DNA from: Gemmatimonadota bacterium | Lineage (GTDB): Bacteria; Gemmatimonadota; Gemmatimonadetes; Palauibacterales; Palauibacteraceae | NCBI GenBank assembly: GCA_039588275.1 | Contig: JBDHAC010000007.1 | Coordinates: 18,413 to 82,412, forward strand | Length of the DNA: 64,000 nt | Direction of reading: 5' to 3' | Notes under the pieces: generated by a model | What the model was told of the DNA's origin: nothing | Seen by the model: the letters and a program-made list of their open reading frames with translations, nothing else | Database searches by the model: none | Shown here: piece after piece, positions 1,907 to 33,653 of the stretch | Numbering within the stretch: the stretch's first letter is position 1 | Layout: every line of letters starts with the position of its first letter | Translations under genes and position numbers: made by a program

Positions 1907-2581
1907 GTGACCATGGCCTGTACCTCGTTTTGGAACGCGACCAGCAGGTTGATGGCCGCCGTCACGTCTCCGCGATCGATCGCTCAGGTGCTCTCTCTGG
2001 TCAGCGAACTGAGCGGCCAACCATTGGAACGCGAAGCTAGGGACGGGCTCGAGTTCCAGATGGCGGTCGAGCTTCTCTGGCACGACCAGACTCGAGCGGG
2101 CCGAGAGATCCTCGACGAGCTCGCCCGTCGGTTGACTGAGCGTCGGCGGGAAGAGGGCGAAGGTGGAGCGTGGCCGATTGTCGGGGTTCTGCTTCACCTG
2201 GATCGGGCGGAGGAAGCCTGGAGGGTCCTCGGCGGATCCGGGTTTGAAGCTTCGACAGTGATCCGCCCCGACAGCGTGCCCGAAGGCCAGTGGCGGCGGA
2301 CGAGGACAGCGGAACTGAGCATCCGGGGCGTCGTGGCCGCGCGTGCGGGACGCCGCGAGGAGGCCGAGCGAATGGACCGGGAACTGGTGGCGTTCGGCAA
2401 TCGCCCCGGCGAGATGCTCGAACGGGCTGGCATCGCCGCCGCCCTAGGAGACTGCGCGCGAGCGGGCAGATTCCTGGAAAGGTCCTGGGAGGGCCGACAC
2501 CAGTGGATCCACAGGCACGCCGGCTTGTTTTACTGCCGCCACGACCCCGCCTTTCAGGAAGTCGCCAAGCCGCGAGGTTAG
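1907..2581 (+). pseudogene. Hypothetical helical-repeat (TPR-like) protein, probably a 5'-truncated remnant
   Basis: C-terminus (AGIAAALGDCARAGRFLERS...HDPAFQEVAKPRG) resembles the ends of large TPR proteins. In-frame stop at 1877-1879 and no good RBS. Confidence 0.45.
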
Positions 2582-2602
2582 CTGCAATCGCGTGCTGGCC
2601 CG

Positions 2603-3085
2603 CTAGAGGTGTAGCAGCCTTCCCTGCGCGTCGATCAGCAGGCTCCGCTCCCCCGTGCGGGTCATCACGGTGATCAAGCCGGGAGGCAGCTGACAGTCTC
2701 CGCCCGTCACGAGTCGGCCGCGCGGATCGAAGCAGAGCATCGTGCGGTCGCTCACGATCTCCACGGCCGGCGGCTGGACCACACGTGCTACCGTGGGGGT
2801 ACCGCTCGCACCCTGGGTCGTGTCCACCTCGACCCACAGGCGGTCCGCATCCGAGTCGATGTGCAGGACGGCCACCTGACCGTGGCGAATGGCCAGCGTA
2901 CGCGCCTCGGCGTACGCGATCTCGATCAGCTCGATCGCGTTGCGGGTCGCGTCCTCCTCCGTCGCACGCAGCATCGGCCAAGCGGTCGCGAGGACGGTAA
3001 CGGCGGCGAGGGCGCCGACCGCAAGCCCTTCGAGCCCTTTCGGCGCAGGTCGCTTCAGGTCGCCAGGCAATCTTGTCGGTGACAT
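2603..3085 (-). CDS. GspH/FimT-like pseudopilin-fold protein
   Basis: N-terminal hydrophobic helix, AYAEARTLAIRHGQVAVL, LCFDPRGR and C-terminal IDAQGR resemble FimT/GspH. The canonical G|FTLIE prepilin site is absent. Confidence 0.6.
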   Translation of the reverse strand: MSPTRLPGDLKRPAPKGLEGLAVGALAAVTVLATAWPMLRATEEDATRNAIELIEIAYAEARTLAIRHGQVAVLHIDSDADRLWVEVDTTQGASGTPTVARVVQPPAVEIVSDRTMLCFDPRGRLVTGGDCQLPPGLITVMTRTGERSLLIDAQGRLLHL

Positions 3086-27932: not shown

Positions 27933-28514
27933 CTAGGAGATGAACTGCGGAGAGAGCACGAGCTGCATGAACTCCTCGCGCGTGCGTGGATCACTGCGGA
28001 ACAGCCCGCGGACCGCGCTCGTGATGGTCTTGCTGTTCTGCTTCTGGACGCCGCGCATCATCATGCACAGGTGGTAGGCTTCGACGACGACGCCCACACC
28101 CTGTGGCTGGAGCACATCCTCGAGCGCCTGCGCGATCTCCTCCGTGAGGCGTTCCTGCACCTGCAGCCGGCGCGCGAACACTTCCACGACCCGCGGCAGC
28201 TTGCTGAGCCCGACGATCTTCCCATCCGGGATATATGCGACGTGCGCCTTTCCGAAGAAGGGAAGCATGTGGTGCTCGCACAGCGAGTACAGCTCGATGT
28301 CCTTGACGATCACCATGCTGTCGTGCGCCTCGTCGTACACGGCGTCGCCGATCGCATCCTCCACCGACAGCCCGTAGCCGCGCGTGAGAAAGCCGAGCGA
28401 GCGGGAGACTCGCCCCGGCGTTTCGCGCAACCCTGCCCGGTTCGGGTCCTCGCCCAGGGCTTCGAGCTGCGCGCGCACGAGCTCCTCGAAAGGGACGTCC
28501 CGTTCTTCACTCAC
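27933..28514 (-). CDS. folE: GTP cyclohydrolase I
   Basis: [39 protein letters not shown]. Confidence 0.97.
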
Positions 28515-28888: not shown

Positions 28889-29656
28889 TTAGTGACCGCC
28901 GGCCGGAACCAGCATCAGACCGAGGATCATCACCGCGACGCCCAGCAGGAACGCGAGGGTATTGCGCCGGCGACCGCTCGCCTGGCCCTCGGGGAGGAGA
29001 TCGGCGGCCCCCACGTACAGGAACGTCCCGCCCGACGCCGCCAGGAAGATCCCCAGGAGCATCGTGCTCGCGTCACGCAACAGCGCGTAGCTCACGACGA
29101 CGGCGAGCGGCGTGATCAGAGCGACCCAGGTCGCGTAACGCGCGGCCTCCCGCCGCTCCAGGCCGCCGTGGTACAGCACGCTCATGGTGGCGATCCCCAC
29201 CGGCAGCTTGTGCGATACGACGAGCGACAGGATCACCGCCCCTGTGAGGAAGCTCGCCGAAAAGCCCGCCCCCACCGCGAGCCCGTCCAGAAGCGAGTGG
29301 AGCGCGAGTCCGAGGATCGCGGCCCAGCCGACTTGGTCCGGGTGGTCGTGGTGGGCCTCGTCCTCCCCTTCCTCGGCGCGGGCGTGCGGGTGTGGGAGGA
29401 AATGGTTCTCGGCGATGTACAACAGGATGAACGCGCCCAGACCCCATGCCATCGACGCACTCGATCCGATCATTTCGCCGGCACGCGTCAGGAGGTGGAG
29501 CAACGAGCCCGCTACCAGCAGCCCGCTGGCAAACGTGATCAGCTCGGGGGTGTGCCGACGGGCCCATGCCTCGTGACCCCACATCAGCCACACGCCGACC
29601 AGGCCGGCGACGCCCGCGATCGCGGCGAAAAGGACTACGGCGGGCCAGGTGGGCAT
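28889..29656 (-). CDS. ZIP-family divalent metal transporter
   Basis: LHSLLDGLAVG, SHKLPVG, GTFLYVGAADLLPE, His-rich loop HPH...HHDH. Confidence 0.93.
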   Translation of the reverse strand: MPTWPAVVLFAAIAGVAGLVGVWLMWGHEAWARRHTPELITFASGLLVAGSLLHLLTRAGEMIGSSASMAWGLGAFILLYIAENHFLPHPHARAEEGEDEAHHDHPDQVGWAAILGLALHSLLDGLAVGAGFSASFLTGAVILSLVVSHKLPVGIATMSVLYHGGLERREAARYATWVALITPLAVVVSYALLRDASTMLLGIFLAASGGTFLYVGAADLLPEGQASGRRRNTLAFLLGVAVMILGLMLVPAGGH

Positions 29657-29718
29657 CGGGCTCCTCGTCTGCTCCAGGCGGGGGGAAGCGCCGCGTCGGG
29701 CGAGTGCCAGCGCGACTT

Positions 29719-29750
29719 GATTGCACGTAATCGCCTACAAACCCTACATT
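29719..29750 (+). promoter_or_regulatory. Putative sigma70 promoter with overlapping imperfect palindrome
   Basis: TTGCAC (29721-29726), 18 nt, TACATT (29745-29750); GATTGC-AC-GTAATC dyad at 29719-29732; ATG 7 nt downstream. Confidence 0.5.
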
Positions 29751-29757
29751 TCGCGCG

Positions 29758-30111
29758 ATGTTAGGGCAATATCCTTCCCTTTGGCCGGTGCTGTTGCGGA
29801 GGCCGGGCGTGGCGCTTCTGGCGCTCCTCTCGGTGGGCGTACCCGTCAGTCTCCCCCTCGTGGACGCGGGTGAGCGCGTCGATGGGGCGTTTGTCGAGTC
29901 CAGCCACGACCCGGCGACGTGTCTTCGGGTGCACGACCACGCGGCCTGCTCGCAGTTGCTCAAGTCGTTCGCGGGGCTGTGGCCCGCGTGGCTCACCCCG
30001 CTCCGCCCTGCTCGGGCTAGAGGACCACTGTCTACTTCCGGGAAGGCTCCGCCACTCCGACTCTGGCCCGTCTCCCACGCACCTCGCGCCCCTCCGGAGA
30101 TCGCTCTCTGA
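29758..30111 (+). CDS. DUF2946-like upstream ORF with His/Cys cluster and C-terminal RAPP motif
   Basis: Hydrophobic N-terminal segment, ESSHDPATCLRVHDHAAC, Pro-rich linker, PRAPPEIAL-stop. Confidence 0.72.
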   Translation: MLGQYPSLWPVLLRRPGVALLALLSVGVPVSLPLVDAGERVDGAFVESSHDPATCLRVHDHAACSQLLKSFAGLWPAWLTPLRPARARGPLSTSGKAPPLRLWPVSHAPRAPPEIAL

Positions 30112-30225
30112 TTCGAAGGGTCCTATGACGGACCTGCGCATGGAGGAGCCTTCGCTTGATCCGTGCGTGACGCGCGCCCGTTGAAGCGCGTCTGACAGGA
30201 GCCAGACATCCTCGGAGGACCACAC

Positions 30226-31614
30226 ATGAAAGCCGATTATGCCAGGGCTGTGCGAGGCTCGCGCCGGGCCATCCTGGGTGTCGTCCTCGGCACCCTGGTG
30301 CCGGGCGTCCCGCTGGCCGCACAGGAGACCCGCGCCGATTCACTCGAGGCGCGTGTACGTCGCCTCGAAACGCTGGTCGATAGCCTGCTCGTCGAGTTGC
30401 GGCGCCAGCGAGCGGCGGAGGCGGGGCAAGCCGAGGCGGGGCAGGCGGAGGCGGCTCGACCGGAGGCGGATGAGCTCGCCGCCCTGCGAGCGGCGGCAGC
30501 AGCCGCGGCGGCGGAGGCGGCGCCCGCGGCCGCTATGGACACGGCAGGCGAAGCGGGTAGCCGCACGCGGAACCTGAACGTCCTCAACCCGGAGATCAGC
30601 GTCTCCGGCGACGTGGTCGGCGGCTTCCTGTCGCCATCCGAGGAGGACGACCGTGGGACCGCGTTGCCGCGCGAGTTCGAGTTCTCGTTCCAGGCCGCGC
30701 TGGACCCCTTCACGCGGACCAAGATCTTCCTCAGCAGAGAGGAGGAGCTGGAGATCGCCGGGCTCGAAGCCGTCATCGAGGGGGGCGGCCTCGGCGACGG
30801 CGAAGGAGGAGAGGGTGGAGGAGGACACGGCTCCGGGCTCGATCTGGAGGAGGGATACCTGTACTGGGTGGGTCTTCCGGGCGCGATCGGACTGAAGGCC
30901 GGTCGGTTTCGTCAGGAGATGGGGCTGTACAACCGCTGGCATACCCACGCGCTTCTCGAGGTCGAGCGGCCATTGCCGATCGGCGCCTTTCTCGGCGATG
31001 ACGGCCTGATCCAGACAGGCGCGTCCCTCACGCTCCCCAGCTTCCAGGTCGGGCCATCCACCCAGACCGTCACGTTCGAGACGGCGCTGGCCGACAACAA
31101 GCTGTTCGAAGGCGGCACGGACTTCTCGTACTCGGGGCGGGCTCAAAGCTTCGTTGACGTCTCGCCGAGCATGTATCTGCAGGTGGGAGCGAACGGAGTA
31201 TACGGCCGAAACGACGACCTCGACCTCGATGCCACGTTGTTCGGGCTGGACGTGGCGTTTCGATGGGCGCCGCCGTCGCAGGCACGCTACCGTGAGCTGA
31301 GGCTGAAGGGCGAGTGGTACTGGGCGGATCGCAACATCGGTCCCGAGAGCTTTTCGGGCAACGGGGGGTACGCCCAGGCCAGCTATCGTTGGGATCAGCG
31401 CTGGATCACCGGCTTCCGGGCCGATTGGCTGGACCACTTCGGAGACGACCCGACGGCCATTCAGCTGGTCCCGTCCGTTACCTGGTGGCAAAGCGAGTGG
31501 GTGCGACTGCGCCTCCAGTACCACTATTTGAAGCGCGCCGGCCTCGACGCCGACCATACGCTCCTGTTCCAGACCGTGTGGGCCGTCGGGCCGCACAAGC
31601 ACGAGACCTACTAA
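30226..31614 (+). CDS. Outer-membrane beta-barrel (porin-like) with N-terminal coiled coil, metal-uptake associated
   Basis: Signal peptide, coiled coil, LNPEISVSGD, NRWHTH, amphipathic strands, C-terminal GPHKHETY. Confidence 0.8.
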   Translation: MKADYARAVRGSRRAILGVVLGTLVPGVPLAAQETRADSLEARVRRLETLVDSLLVELRRQRAAEAGQAEAGQAEAARPEADELAALRAAAAAAAAEAAPAAAMDTAGEAGSRTRNLNVLNPEISVSGDVVGGFLSPSEEDDRGTALPREFEFSFQAALDPFTRTKIFLSREEELEIAGLEAVIEGGGLGDGEGGEGGGGHGSGLDLEEGYLYWVGLPGAIGLKAGRFRQEMGLYNRWHTHALLEVERPLPIGAFLGDDGLIQTGASLTLPSFQVGPSTQTVTFETALADNKLFEGGTDFSYSGRAQSFVDVSPSMYLQVGANGVYGRNDDLDLDATLFGLDVAFRWAPPSQARYRELRLKGEWYWADRNIGPESFSGNGGYAQASYRWDQRWITGFRADWLDHFGDDPTAIQLVPSVTWWQSEWVRLRLQYHYLKRAGLDADHTLLFQTVWAVGPHKHETY

Positions 31615-31656: not shown

Positions 31657-32757
31657 ATGAGAGACACGATGACGAGACGGTTCACCGCTACGCGTTGGGC
31701 CGCCCTCGCAGTCCTCCTGACCTCGATCGAGCCCACTCCGCTCGGCGCCCAAGACAGACTCAACGTGGTCGCCACGCTCCCGACGTACGCGGCGATCGCG
31801 CGCGAGATCGCGCGAGACCGGGCCGACGTGCGGGCCATAGCCCGAGGTGACGAGGATGCTCACTTCGTGAACCCGCGTCCGTCATTCGCGCGTCTGCTGC
31901 AATCCGCCGACCTGTTCATCTCGACGGGTCTGGACCTCGAGCTGTGGGTGCCGGGCCTGCTCGACCGCGCCAACAATCCGGACGTGTCCGAGGGAGGCCC
32001 CGGGCACGTCGTCGTCTACTCGGGGATCGAGCTGCTCGACATCCCCGCCTCCGTCTCACGATCGGGGGGCGACGTGCACGTGTTCGGCAACCCGCACATC
32101 CATACGGACCCGATCAACGGGATCCTCATCGGCCGGAATATCCTCGCGGGTCTGAAGCGGGTCGACCCGGACGGCTCCGCGACGTACGAGGCGAACGCGC
32201 GCGAATTCGAGGAGCGCGTCCTTCGCCGGCTGTTCGGCGATGAGCTGGTCGACATGCTGGGTGCCGGTGCCCTGTTCGGTCTAGCTCGCGCAGGCCAGTT
32301 TTGGAAGTTCGCGGAGGGCCAGGAGTTCGAGGGTCGACCTCTCGCGGAATACGTTGGCGGGTGGCTGGCGGAAGCCGAGCCCTTCCGCGGCGAGCGGATG
32401 GTGTGCTATCACAAGAACTGGGCATACTTCAGCGCGCGATTCCAGATCGAGTGCGCCATGTACGTAGAGCCCAAGCCGGGCATCCCGGCATCGCCGGGGC
32501 ACGTGCGGGACGTGATCGCCTTCATGGAGGCCAACTCGATTCCGGTGCTGTTCGCCGCCAATTACTTCAGCCAGCGTCAGGTCGAGCTCGTGGCCGATCG
32601 AAGTGGCGCGCTGCCGCTGCGGATCCCGGAGCACGTGGACGGAGAGGAAGACGTGGATGATTACTTCGATCTGTTCGACGCGTGGATCCCCTGTCTGGCG
32701 GTGGCCTTCCAGCAGGGAGAGGGTGTGGCTCACCGCTGCCCGCGTCACCACCCATAG
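31657..32757 (+). CDS. Metal ABC transporter substrate-binding protein (ZnuA/TroA family)
   Basis: EDAHFVNPRPS, GDVHVFGNPH, YHKNWAYF, EPKPGIP. Confidence 0.92.
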   Translation: MRDTMTRRFTATRWAALAVLLTSIEPTPLGAQDRLNVVATLPTYAAIAREIARDRADVRAIARGDEDAHFVNPRPSFARLLQSADLFISTGLDLELWVPGLLDRANNPDVSEGGPGHVVVYSGIELLDIPASVSRSGGDVHVFGNPHIHTDPINGILIGRNILAGLKRVDPDGSATYEANAREFEERVLRRLFGDELVDMLGAGALFGLARAGQFWKFAEGQEFEGRPLAEYVGGWLAEAEPFRGERMVCYHKNWAYFSARFQIECAMYVEPKPGIPASPGHVRDVIAFMEANSIPVLFAANYFSQRQVELVADRSGALPLRIPEHVDGEEDVDDYFDLFDAWIPCLAVAFQQGEGVAHRCPRHHP

Positions 32758-32822: not shown

Positions 32823-33653
32823 ATGCTCGAGTTCATGCTCGTGCCGCTCGTGGCGGCGCTCGTACTGGTCGGTATCCACGCGTACCTGGGCGTACACGTC
32901 ATCGCGCGCGGCGTGATCTTCGTGGATCTGGCGCTGGCGCAGATGGCCGCTCTCGGGTACACGGGCGCGACGCTGGCCGGGATCGAGCCCGGATCCACGG
33001 GCGGGTACGTGATCGGCGTCGCCGCGACGCTCCTCGGAGCCTTGATCCTGAGCTTCACGCGCCTCGAGCACGAGTTCATCACCCAGGAGGCGCTCATCGG
33101 CGTCATGTACGTGACGGCGTCGGCCGCGACCATACTGCTCGCCGCGCAAGCGCCGCGCGGATCGGAGCACGTGGAAGAGCTGCTCACGGGCACGCTTCTG
33201 TGGGTCACGTGGTCCGACGTGCTCCGGATCGGCGCGATCTACCTCGTCCTGGGTCTGATCTACTGGGCGCTGCGGCGACGGTTCTTGACGATTTCGCTAC
33301 GGCCCGCGGAGGCGCTAAGCCACGGGTGGAAGCTCAGGTGGTGGGACTTCGTGTTCTACGGGCTGTTCGGCGCCGTGGTGACCGTCTCGGTCGCCGTCGC
33401 GGGCGTTCTGGTGGTGTTCACCTTCCTGGTGATGCCGGCGGTGATCGCATTCCTGTTCACGCGCCGCCCGGGTCCGTTACTCGGCATCGCGTGGGCGAGC
33501 GGGACCGCCGCGACGGTGGCGGGGTTGGCCTTATCGTTCCGCTACGACCTCCCGACCGGGCCCATGGTGGTGTGCGCATTCGCGCTCGCGCTCGTGCTCG
33601 CGTTCGTCGCCCGCGCGGTGACGGGCCGCTCGGGAAGTCCCGGACCCTCGTAG
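32823..33653 (+). CDS. Metal ABC transporter permease (ZnuB/ABC-3 family)
   Basis: HAYLGVHVIARGVIFVDLALAQ, AGVLVVFTFLVMPA, DLPTG. Confidence 0.92.
   Translation: MLEFMLVPLVAALVLVGIHAYLGVHVIARGVIFVDLALAQMAALGYTGATLAGIEPGSTGGYVIGVAATLLGALILSFTRLEHEFITQEALIGVMYVTASAATILLAAQAPRGSEHVEELLTGTLLWVTWSDVLRIGAIYLVLGLIYWALRRRFLTISLRPAEALSHGWKLRWWDFVFYGLFGAVVTVSVAVAGVLVVFTFLVMPAVIAFLFTRRPGPLLGIAWASGTAATVAGLALSFRYDLPTGPMVVCAFALALVLAFVARAVTGRSGSPGPS

Follow-up and report, generated by a model that had tools for sequence, protein, structure and literature searches.

A conserved, unannotated leader gene stands at the head of an operon for an outer-membrane porin, a ZnuA-family binding protein and a ZnuB-like permease in a Gemmatimonadota genome. 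From its sequence pattern, the 117-residue leader is very likely an arrest peptide, and it is likely to be metal-sensing, with zinc as the best guess for the sensed metal. What is new here would be a His-site form of the known CruR/CutF leader class on a porin-ZnuA-ZnuB operon. We consider it slightly more probable than not that the RAPP-ending leader stalls its own ribosome and thereby keeps porin-ZnuA-ZnuB on when metal, most likely zinc, is scarce. Coordinates refer to the window, that is, the whole stretch of 64,000 nucleotides that was analyzed, in which the following features are of concern.

27933-28514, minus strand: folE, GTP cyclohydrolase I (Pfam/NCBIfam); found upstream in 17 of the 51 loci whose flank was long enough
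28889-29656, minus strand: divergent ZIP/ZupT-family transporter (PF02535, E 6.1e-27); upstream in 27 of 68 homologous loci
29721-29750, plus strand: putative sigma-70-type promoter, -35 TTGCAC (29721-29726), 18-nt spacer, -10 TACATT (29745-29750); from sequence and box conservation
29758-30111, plus strand: leader ORF, 117 aa, with basic N-terminus, hydrophobic helix, His/Cys site, 45-residue low-complexity linker, RAPP and 4-residue tail
29788-29871, plus strand: hydrophobic export/membrane helix, residues 11-38 (AlphaFold pLDDT 84-95)
29863-29949, plus strand: putative metal site D36, E47, H50, C55, H59, D60, H61, C64; from column conservation
29950-30084, plus strand: Pro-rich linker of 45 codons with C-rich mRNA (possible Rho loading stretch); length conserved
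30085-30096, plus strand: putative RAPP arrest motif, R110-P113; R, P and P invariant in 63/63 aligned leaders
30091-30110, plus strand: 5' strand of a predicted SD-sequestering stem (Pro-Pro codons, tail and stop); from MFE fold, duplex energy and consensus fold of 3 genomes
30118-30135, 30136-30168 and 30169-30192, plus strand: three predicted intergenic hairpins that would bring the stop region beside the porin SD; from MFE and consensus fold
30196-30218, plus strand: predicted 3' stem strand with the porin SD GGAGG (30214-30218); from MFE fold and duplex energy
30226-31614, plus strand: outer-membrane porin-like protein, 462 aa, N-terminal helices and a barrel of about 16 strands (AlphaFold pLDDT 84); not TonB-dependent
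31657-32757, plus strand: ZnuA-family binding protein (PF01297, E 2.5e-38; best NCBIfam model AztC, below cut-off)
32823-33653, plus strand: ZnuB-like ABC-3 permease (PF00950, E 1.6e-31)

The leader ORF and its RAPP ending are conserved upstream of porin homologues

The leader ends in RAPP-EIAL and a TGA stop (30109-30111), so that the RAPP codons stand four codons 5' of the stop, and a gap of 114 nt separates the ORF from the porin ATG at 30226. An earlier note on this DNA had pointed out the ORF, the TACATT box, the RAPP codons, the words CCTCCG and CGGAGG and the porin SD region, and all were found at the places it gave. We searched the 450 nt 5' of porin genes for ORFs ending in R[AGS]PP, at most eight further residues and a stop. 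Of 95 loci fetched, 8 were dropped as short or partial and 14 as duplicates, and such an ORF was present in 67 of the 73 distinct loci that were left. The reverse strand gave 1/73 and 50 shuffles gave a mean of 1.98 and a maximum of 6, while replacing the R of the pattern with A, G, S, L, T or V gave 0/73 and replacing it with P gave 2/73. The result held in a set of held-out metagenome loci (68 fetched, 26 short ones and 14 duplicates dropped), with 25/28 carrying the ORF and 1 on the reverse strand. The loci are kin and hence not independent, and the set spans Gemmatimonadota and Planctomycetota; the porin homologues are mostly from Gemmatimonadota, with a few from Planctomycetota and others. 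Conservation of RAPP upstream of porin homologues, which the earlier note had named as a check, is thus borne out in both sets.

The motif reads RAPP in 44, RGPP in 16 and RSPP in 6 of 66 leaders. The only invariant positions are C64, R110, P112 and P113, at a mean identity of 28%. A profile built from the leaders matches 1285 clusters at 50% identity; in its own genome the ORF is single-copy with no paralogues, and the protein matched nothing in Pfam or NCBIfam. Since shadow frames of this genome commonly carry R[AGS]PP close to a stop codon (242 of 46,573 stop-to-stop frames), a chance ORF in GC-rich DNA had to be considered. However, the ending recurs at the same place in both locus sets together with an aligned ligand motif, and differences between close genomes fall mostly at third codon positions (45, against 28 and 18). 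These conservation tests refute the chance reading, to which we assign a negligible probability.

A putative metal site ends 45 residues before RAPP

The hydrophobic helix is a general property of the leaders, with a hydropathy peak of at least 1.5 in 61/63 homologues, and the AlphaFold model of the leader is disordered beyond residue 78. Between these lies the pattern D/H36-E47-H50-C55-H59-x-H61-x2-C64, for which the column counts among 63 aligned leaders are 54 for E47, 47 for H50, 56 each for C55 and H59, 39 for H61 and 63 for C64. Residue 36 (window position 29863) is D, H or E in 63/63 and stands at the end of the helix, in a place that resembles a signal-peptidase site; if it is an additional ligand, as it may be, this would speak for an anchor that stays uncleaved.

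In the window protein C64 and R110 are separated by 45 residues. The same spacing of exactly 45 was found in 37/66 leaders and a spacing of 44-46 in 58/66, and in 23/25 held-out leaders it was 44-46, a count with a slight bias since the Cys nearest to 45 was chosen within a 10-residue window. With a His/Cys cluster placed at exactly 45 residues before RAPP, the leader is likely to be a built-in metal switch, probably for zinc. The site and its spacing are kept across homologues; conservation of the His/Cys motif was among the checks named in the earlier note.

The His site is a probable variant of a CxxC site

DUF2946 (PF11162) was the family to which the earlier note had related the leader, as a variant with a His-rich site in place of CxxC. 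No match of the window protein to PF11162 was obtained at E<=1, as the variant reading has it, and PF11162 matched at E<=1 in only 7/63 homologues, the best with 21.4 bits, below the gathering cut-off of 23.7. The four PF11162-matching homologues that were viewed individually are CxxC forms, and farther porins of the same family have H-x-H...CxxC leaders that score up to 20.6 bits. The last-ligand motif is HxxC in 39/66 and CxxC in 12/66 homologues; the window protein has H61-A-A-C64 and no CxxC. DUF2946 membership was rejected for the window protein on both the HMM cut-off and the CxxC motif. A language-model search placed it nearest to a cluster named 'putative DUF2946', a name without Pfam support.

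In a quick porin tree, CxxC leaders occur in Planctomycetota and on several outer Gemmatimonadota branches (L062 also has a CxxC leader), and the H-x-H-x2-C form makes up one large, weakly supported group that includes the window. A change from CxxC to His is only suggested by this tree, because it comes from a quick search and is midpoint-rooted. Since the site is CxxC in deeper homologues on the same operon, the His site would be a variant of it, and the leader a branch of the CruR/CutF class, not a separate one. The earlier note's reading of the His site as a variant of CxxC is thus supported. By analogy, the leader probably works like CruR/CutF, as a diverged relative.

A conserved promoter-like box directly precedes the leader ATG

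The TACATT box ends 7 nt 5' of the leader ATG. A consensus promoter/terminator scan of the window (threshold 9/12) gave 0 sites, and the promoter call therefore rests on conservation. With leader starts in homologues picked by length, some of them possibly wrong, a TAnnnT box was found 5-12 nt 5' of the leader ATG in 46/66 homologues, compared to 1/66 for the porin ATG; at many leaders TTGACA stands 17-18 nt farther upstream of this box, and an SD-like word preceded the leader ATG in only 5/66. The conserved box just before the ATG points to a transcript start at or next to it, and hence to leaderless or near-leaderless initiation, which the earlier note had suggested from the box and the missing SD.

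Many promoters in the clade whose loci adjoin alkaline phosphatase have GGAAC in the place of TTGACA and an extended -10 box (GGAAC-N18-TATA(T/C)T); GGAAC-type promoters were seen upstream of the leader in L008, L017, L020, L022, L027, L029, L030, L043, L046 and L053. An imperfect palindrome at 29718-29731 spans the -35 box. It was not accepted as a Zur/Fur operator, being kept only in two same-genus genomes, and has 8 other copies (2 mismatches) in the genome.

The downstream genes encode a porin and parts of a zinc-type transporter

Porin and Zn/Mn-type ABC parts, which the earlier note had read from the downstream genes, were recovered by structure and family searches. The best Foldseek match of the porin model was OprP (2o4v, E 1.2e-11), for an OprP/PorB-like fold; a TonB receptor would have a 22-strand barrel and a plug, compared to about 16 strands and no Plug match here. 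PF07396 was found on 7/65 porin homologues. An invariant His pair, H239/H241, lies in an internal loop, and an invariant H459 at the C-terminus. Searches for a 'zinc-regulated' protein name for the porin returned 2 weak unnamed hits by plasmid tblastn and almost only 'hypothetical' proteins, with one OprO/OprP name, in protein databases. The leader finding gives a likely function to this unannotated porin family.

A ZnuA gene follows the porin in 65/65 and a ZnuB gene in 47/47 loci with enough flank, and the best NCBIfam models for the transport genes are AztC/AztB. The invariant ZnuA histidines 69, 147 and 252 are present in 67/67, 66/66 and 65/65 aligned homologues, and the third aligns with a Glu of the Mn-binding MntA. 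In cluster A-I binding proteins a three-His ligand set favors zinc. The best PDB sequence matches of ZnuA are, on the other hand, the Fe/Mn proteins YfeA and MntA. No ATPase gene follows ZnuB in the window, where the next gene is on the other strand; searches of the whole genome gave a single ZnuA, a single ABC-3 permease and nothing that passed the ZnuC cut-off. Two tandem permease genes were seen in the Planctomycete loci L057, L061 and L063. Upstream, ZIP and folE recur among the neighbors, and GTP cyclohydrolase I, the folE product, is a zinc enzyme. No copper gene was found among the recurrent neighbors scanned (targeted tblastn and a Pfam scan of 32/63 representatives). The three-His ZnuA and the ZIP neighbor, together with the ZnuD-like receptors behind homologous leaders and the lack of a regulator with Zur as best hit (both described below), make zinc the best guess for the sensed metal.

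With respect to regulators, the two Fur-family genes of the genome matched best as Fur and PerR, next to an MntR/DtxR-like gene, and none had Zur as its best hit; these labels are best hits below cut-offs and not phylogenetic placements, and NCBIfam offers only a narrow model for Zur. Genome completeness is 86%, so that a Zur gene may have escaped assembly. Four closed genomes of a sister family carry two Fur-family genes each; 7 of these 8 genes were scanned, and all 7 matched Fur or PerR best. Some genomes have a third type of Fur-family protein, short and His-rich, as in L186 (1486-3399), L190 and L195, in L186 directly before a TonB-receptor-like gene; by resemblance we take it to be possibly a Zur.

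The Pro-Pro codons are predicted to pair with the porin ribosome-binding site

The Pro-Pro codons CCTCCG (30091-30096) are complementary to CGGAGG (30213-30218), a 6-bp match that the earlier note had observed and conceded might be chance. In the MFE fold the pairing extends well beyond it: 30091-30110 pairs with 30196-30218 around the three hairpins, with a z-score of -1.56. The window duplex has -22.4 kcal/mol, and 0/200 synonymous recodings were as stable. Two same-genus genomes keep the layout of the stem, with two-sided change in 2/42 pairs (3 sequences), that is, with little covariation.

We surveyed folds in 61 of the 66 loci (5 were dropped for doubtful porin starts or N). The partners of the ribosome-binding site (RBS) peaked at the RAPP and tail codons and were near zero over the next 40 nt. 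Duplexes between the RAPP-tail and its cognate RBS were more stable than non-cognate ones, -17.9 versus -15.9 kcal/mol (mean z -0.67, compared to -0.03 for the linker control), and in the 25 held-out loci the values were -14.4 versus -12.6 kcal/mol (permutation p 0.0016, with p-values of this kind inflated by kinship among the loci). The tail alone gave p 0.013 in the 61 loci and p 0.0012 in the held-out set; linker controls were not significant, and among the intergenic controls one gave p 0.048 with the held-out loci. C-rich Pro codons pair with any SD, which is a caveat on this signal. The 6-bp match thus belongs to a predicted stem of greater length, in which the preference of each leader end for its own RBS is modest and was replicated.

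Masking the footprint of a stalled ribosome lowered the predicted cost of opening the window RBS from 11.0 to 4.8 kcal/mol; with naked upstream RNA the cost was only 6.3 kcal/mol, and a drop of at least 2 kcal/mol on stalling was predicted in 30/61 loci only. SD release as an output is thus modestly supported by the folding models. Rfam gave no match at gathering score, with one chance-level hit elsewhere (25.9 versus 47.4 bits).

Termination by Rho would be another output. The genome has rho, the linker mRNA has C 0.40 and G 0.29 (31 C and 12 G in 30050-30109), and the intergenic regions among the 61 loci are 54-192 nt long. Four-fold third positions showed no excess of C that would indicate selection for a Rho site at silent positions (0.38 in the linker, 0.42 in the porin), and the excess of C over G in the linker is explained by its amino-acid content.

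Proposed mechanism and alternative explanations

We propose that the mRNA would start at the leader ATG, leaderless or nearly so, and that the ribosome would halt with the two Pro codons in its P and A sites, as toeprinted for CruR. The stalled ribosome would cover 30091-30106, the strand that pairs with the porin SD, leaving the SD free, and would secondarily keep Rho off the C-rich linker. By its length of 45 residues, the linker would hold the His/Cys site immediately beyond the exit tunnel and next to the membrane anchor. Zinc binding would then fold the site, pull on the chain and end the stall; the ribosome would leave at the stop four codons on, the stem would close over the SD, and importer synthesis would fall. 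In a bolder version, which we put forward as rather unlikely, the main feedback control of zinc uptake in these Gemmatimonadota would come from a His-rewired CruR-type leader and not from a Zur repressor; the leader would detect zinc at the membrane and control a dedicated, His-lined zinc porin together with a ZnuAB pair that lacks an ATPase.

Two alternatives keep the stall and change its output or its signal. The main output could be CruR-type, Rho-dependent intergenic termination with the anti-SD stem secondary, a possibility of some substance that is compatible with the preferred explanation: importer logic and 45-residue spacing match CruR, rho, the C-rich linker and the long intergenic regions are in place, and half of the loci have no clear SD switch. 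Against this stand the lack of silent-site C enrichment and the cognate RBS pairing, which was replicated in the held-out set. The stalling leader could also respond to manganese, nickel, cobalt or copper, or to several metals, which we consider unlikely, at a level still well above the readings discussed below. The Fe/Mn carriers among the best PDB matches of the binding protein are in favor of it, as are the CxxC versions at the head of the same porin operon, the Cys/His sites that bind copper in CruR and CutF, and the His-only CutF-like leaders that stand before HupE/UreJ Ni/Co genes (PMC9973294). The presence of an MntR/DtxR-like repressor for Mn/Fe control, the lack of copper genes among the recurrent neighbors scanned, the ZIP neighbor, the ZnuD-best receptors behind homologous leaders and the three-His set of ZnuA all speak for zinc instead.

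The remaining alternatives dispense with metal sensing or with the stall. Export helix and RAPP are the layout of a secretion monitor, and C55 and C64, two conserved Cys nine residues apart, could form a disulfide, so that the leader, in the manner of SecM/ApdP, might monitor export or the redox state of the periplasm and not a metal. This we hold to be improbable, as the downstream genes are metal importers in 65/65 loci, His, Glu and Asp around the Cys are conserved, and C55 is absent in 7/63. Even less probable, in our judgment, is a trans-acting product, a small exported peptide that binds metal or serves as a chaperone and has RAPP incidentally. The export helix, the ligand cluster and the 1285 clusters matched by the profile would suit such a peptide, whereas a linker fixed in length without conservation of sequence, an invariant RAPP beside the stop, the first-gene position, the clean loss of the cassette in some lineages and a model disordered after residue 78 would not. 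The preferred reading thus remains a stalling leader that responds to metal, most likely zinc.

Leader homologues can be lost and also precede TonB receptors

The whole leader is gone in 5/73 loci (L031, at 2400-3000, L033, L035, L038 and L055). Such losses fit a control cassette that can be removed and is dispensable for the transporter. In L031, L035 and L055 a promoter-like box lies directly before the porin ATG, an arrangement that suggests leaderless and unregulated expression of the porin. In a tandem duplication of the operon, the second copy (L023) has a decayed leader, while the leader of the first copy is intact. The cassette is also lost in L206, L208 and L210. In L175 (G055:C1:615500-627000), with two tandem porin-ZnuA-ZnuB copies, the second copy keeps the promoter box and RGPP and has lost the start and frame of the leader.

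A genome search with the leader profile gave matches in 45/61 genomes. Six matches away from the porin were fetched, and all precede TonB receptors; of the four receptors scanned, 2 were best as ZnuD and 2 as heme-type, with no score above cut-off. Three genomes that lack this porin have such leaders before TonB receptors, and the two receptors scanned from them had ZnuD as best NCBIfam model, whereas among leaders before TonB receptors in two genomes the one receptor scanned was heme-type, which speaks against zinc. In L165 (3707-7710, G019), L166 and L167 a ZnuD-like TonB receptor takes the place of the porin behind the leader homologue; the L165 unit lies between ZIP and folE, and in L166/L167 a small His-rich exported protein follows. 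In L163, L164 and L168 the leaders precede other TonB receptors, with HVHHDHExC-type and CxxC-type sites, the latter at 23.0 bits for DUF2946.

Relation to known systems

In the literature that we found, nascent-chain metal sensing has so far been tested only for copper (CruR and CutF), and the searches returned no zinc-sensing arrest leader. For specialists, a zinc leader would be a plausible extension of the CruR/CutF class, not a surprise. If true, zinc homeostasis would gain a post-transcriptional branch, and the control of uptake in lineages without an evident Zur would be accounted for. The series CxxC, H-x4-C and H-x-H-x2-C on one operon at fixed spacing provides a test set for ligand choice versus metal specificity, and the same natural series would be useful for studying how folding releases a RAPP stall.

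RAPP/RGPP arrest has been shown in several contexts, is general and is enriched before metal genes (PMC12992588). Among the rows listed, the source data of that paper include RAPP/RGPP ORFs before porins and 'zinc-regulated' outer-membrane genes; the main text does not contain 'zinc', 'porin' or 'Gemmatimonad'. Short RAPP ORFs of the LRGLDVLRRSxDRAPP type, from Actinomycetota, are also numerous in these data and lie ahead of TraR/DksA C4 zinc-finger genes. Three supplements of PMC9973294 had no relevant match, and PMC12914433, in the passages considered, contributed nothing further on zinc. In a Caulobacter zur mutant, DUF2946 genes are among those down, one of them heading a zinc efflux operon (PMC4176598), and no riboswitch is known for copper or zinc according to PMC9426467.

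The secretion monitors ApcA, ApdA, ApdP and SecM have, to our knowledge, no conserved metal site. They share with the present leader a RAPP-type arrest core after an export signal, and differ in that they precede sec/yidC genes (PMC12992588). In CutF of Rhodobacter capsulatus, copper prolongs the stall and opens an SD-hiding stem (PMC9973294; bioRxiv 10.1101/2025.02.05.636593). Like CutF, the leader has an export signal, a putative metal site and a C-terminal Pro motif, and a stem equivalent to the one that the stalled ribosome opens in CutF is predicted here. Unlike in CutF, the anti-SD strand would be the Pro-Pro codons and tail themselves, and CutF stalls with copper to switch on detoxification, whereas an importer is the target here and the opposite polarity is expected.

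The closest counterpart is CruR (Bp2923, DUF2946/PF11162) of Bordetella pertussis, in which copper relieves the RAPP stall and Rho ends transcription; its Cys-to-RAPP spacing is 45, kept within one or two across DUF2946, and five additional residues abolish copper control (PMC9426467). CruR arrest at the Pro-Pro codons was toeprinted in vitro (PMC12992588). As in CruR, the leader has an export signal and heads a metal-uptake operon, a Cys-containing site ends 45 residues before RAPP, RAPP lies 3-4 residues from the end, the intergenic region is long and the predicted polarity is on when metal is scarce. In contrast, CruR has CxxC where the present leader has H-x-H-x2-C with an upstream E-x2-H-x4-C and no DUF2946 match, the CruR target is a TonB receptor with PepSY_TM and not a plug-less porin with ZnuA/ZnuB, and the CruR mRNA has a 45-nt leader where the ATG here lies at the predicted start site. 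An anti-SD stem is predicted only on our side of the comparison; CruR itself works via Rho termination, and by analogy such a stem would be a CutF-type output.
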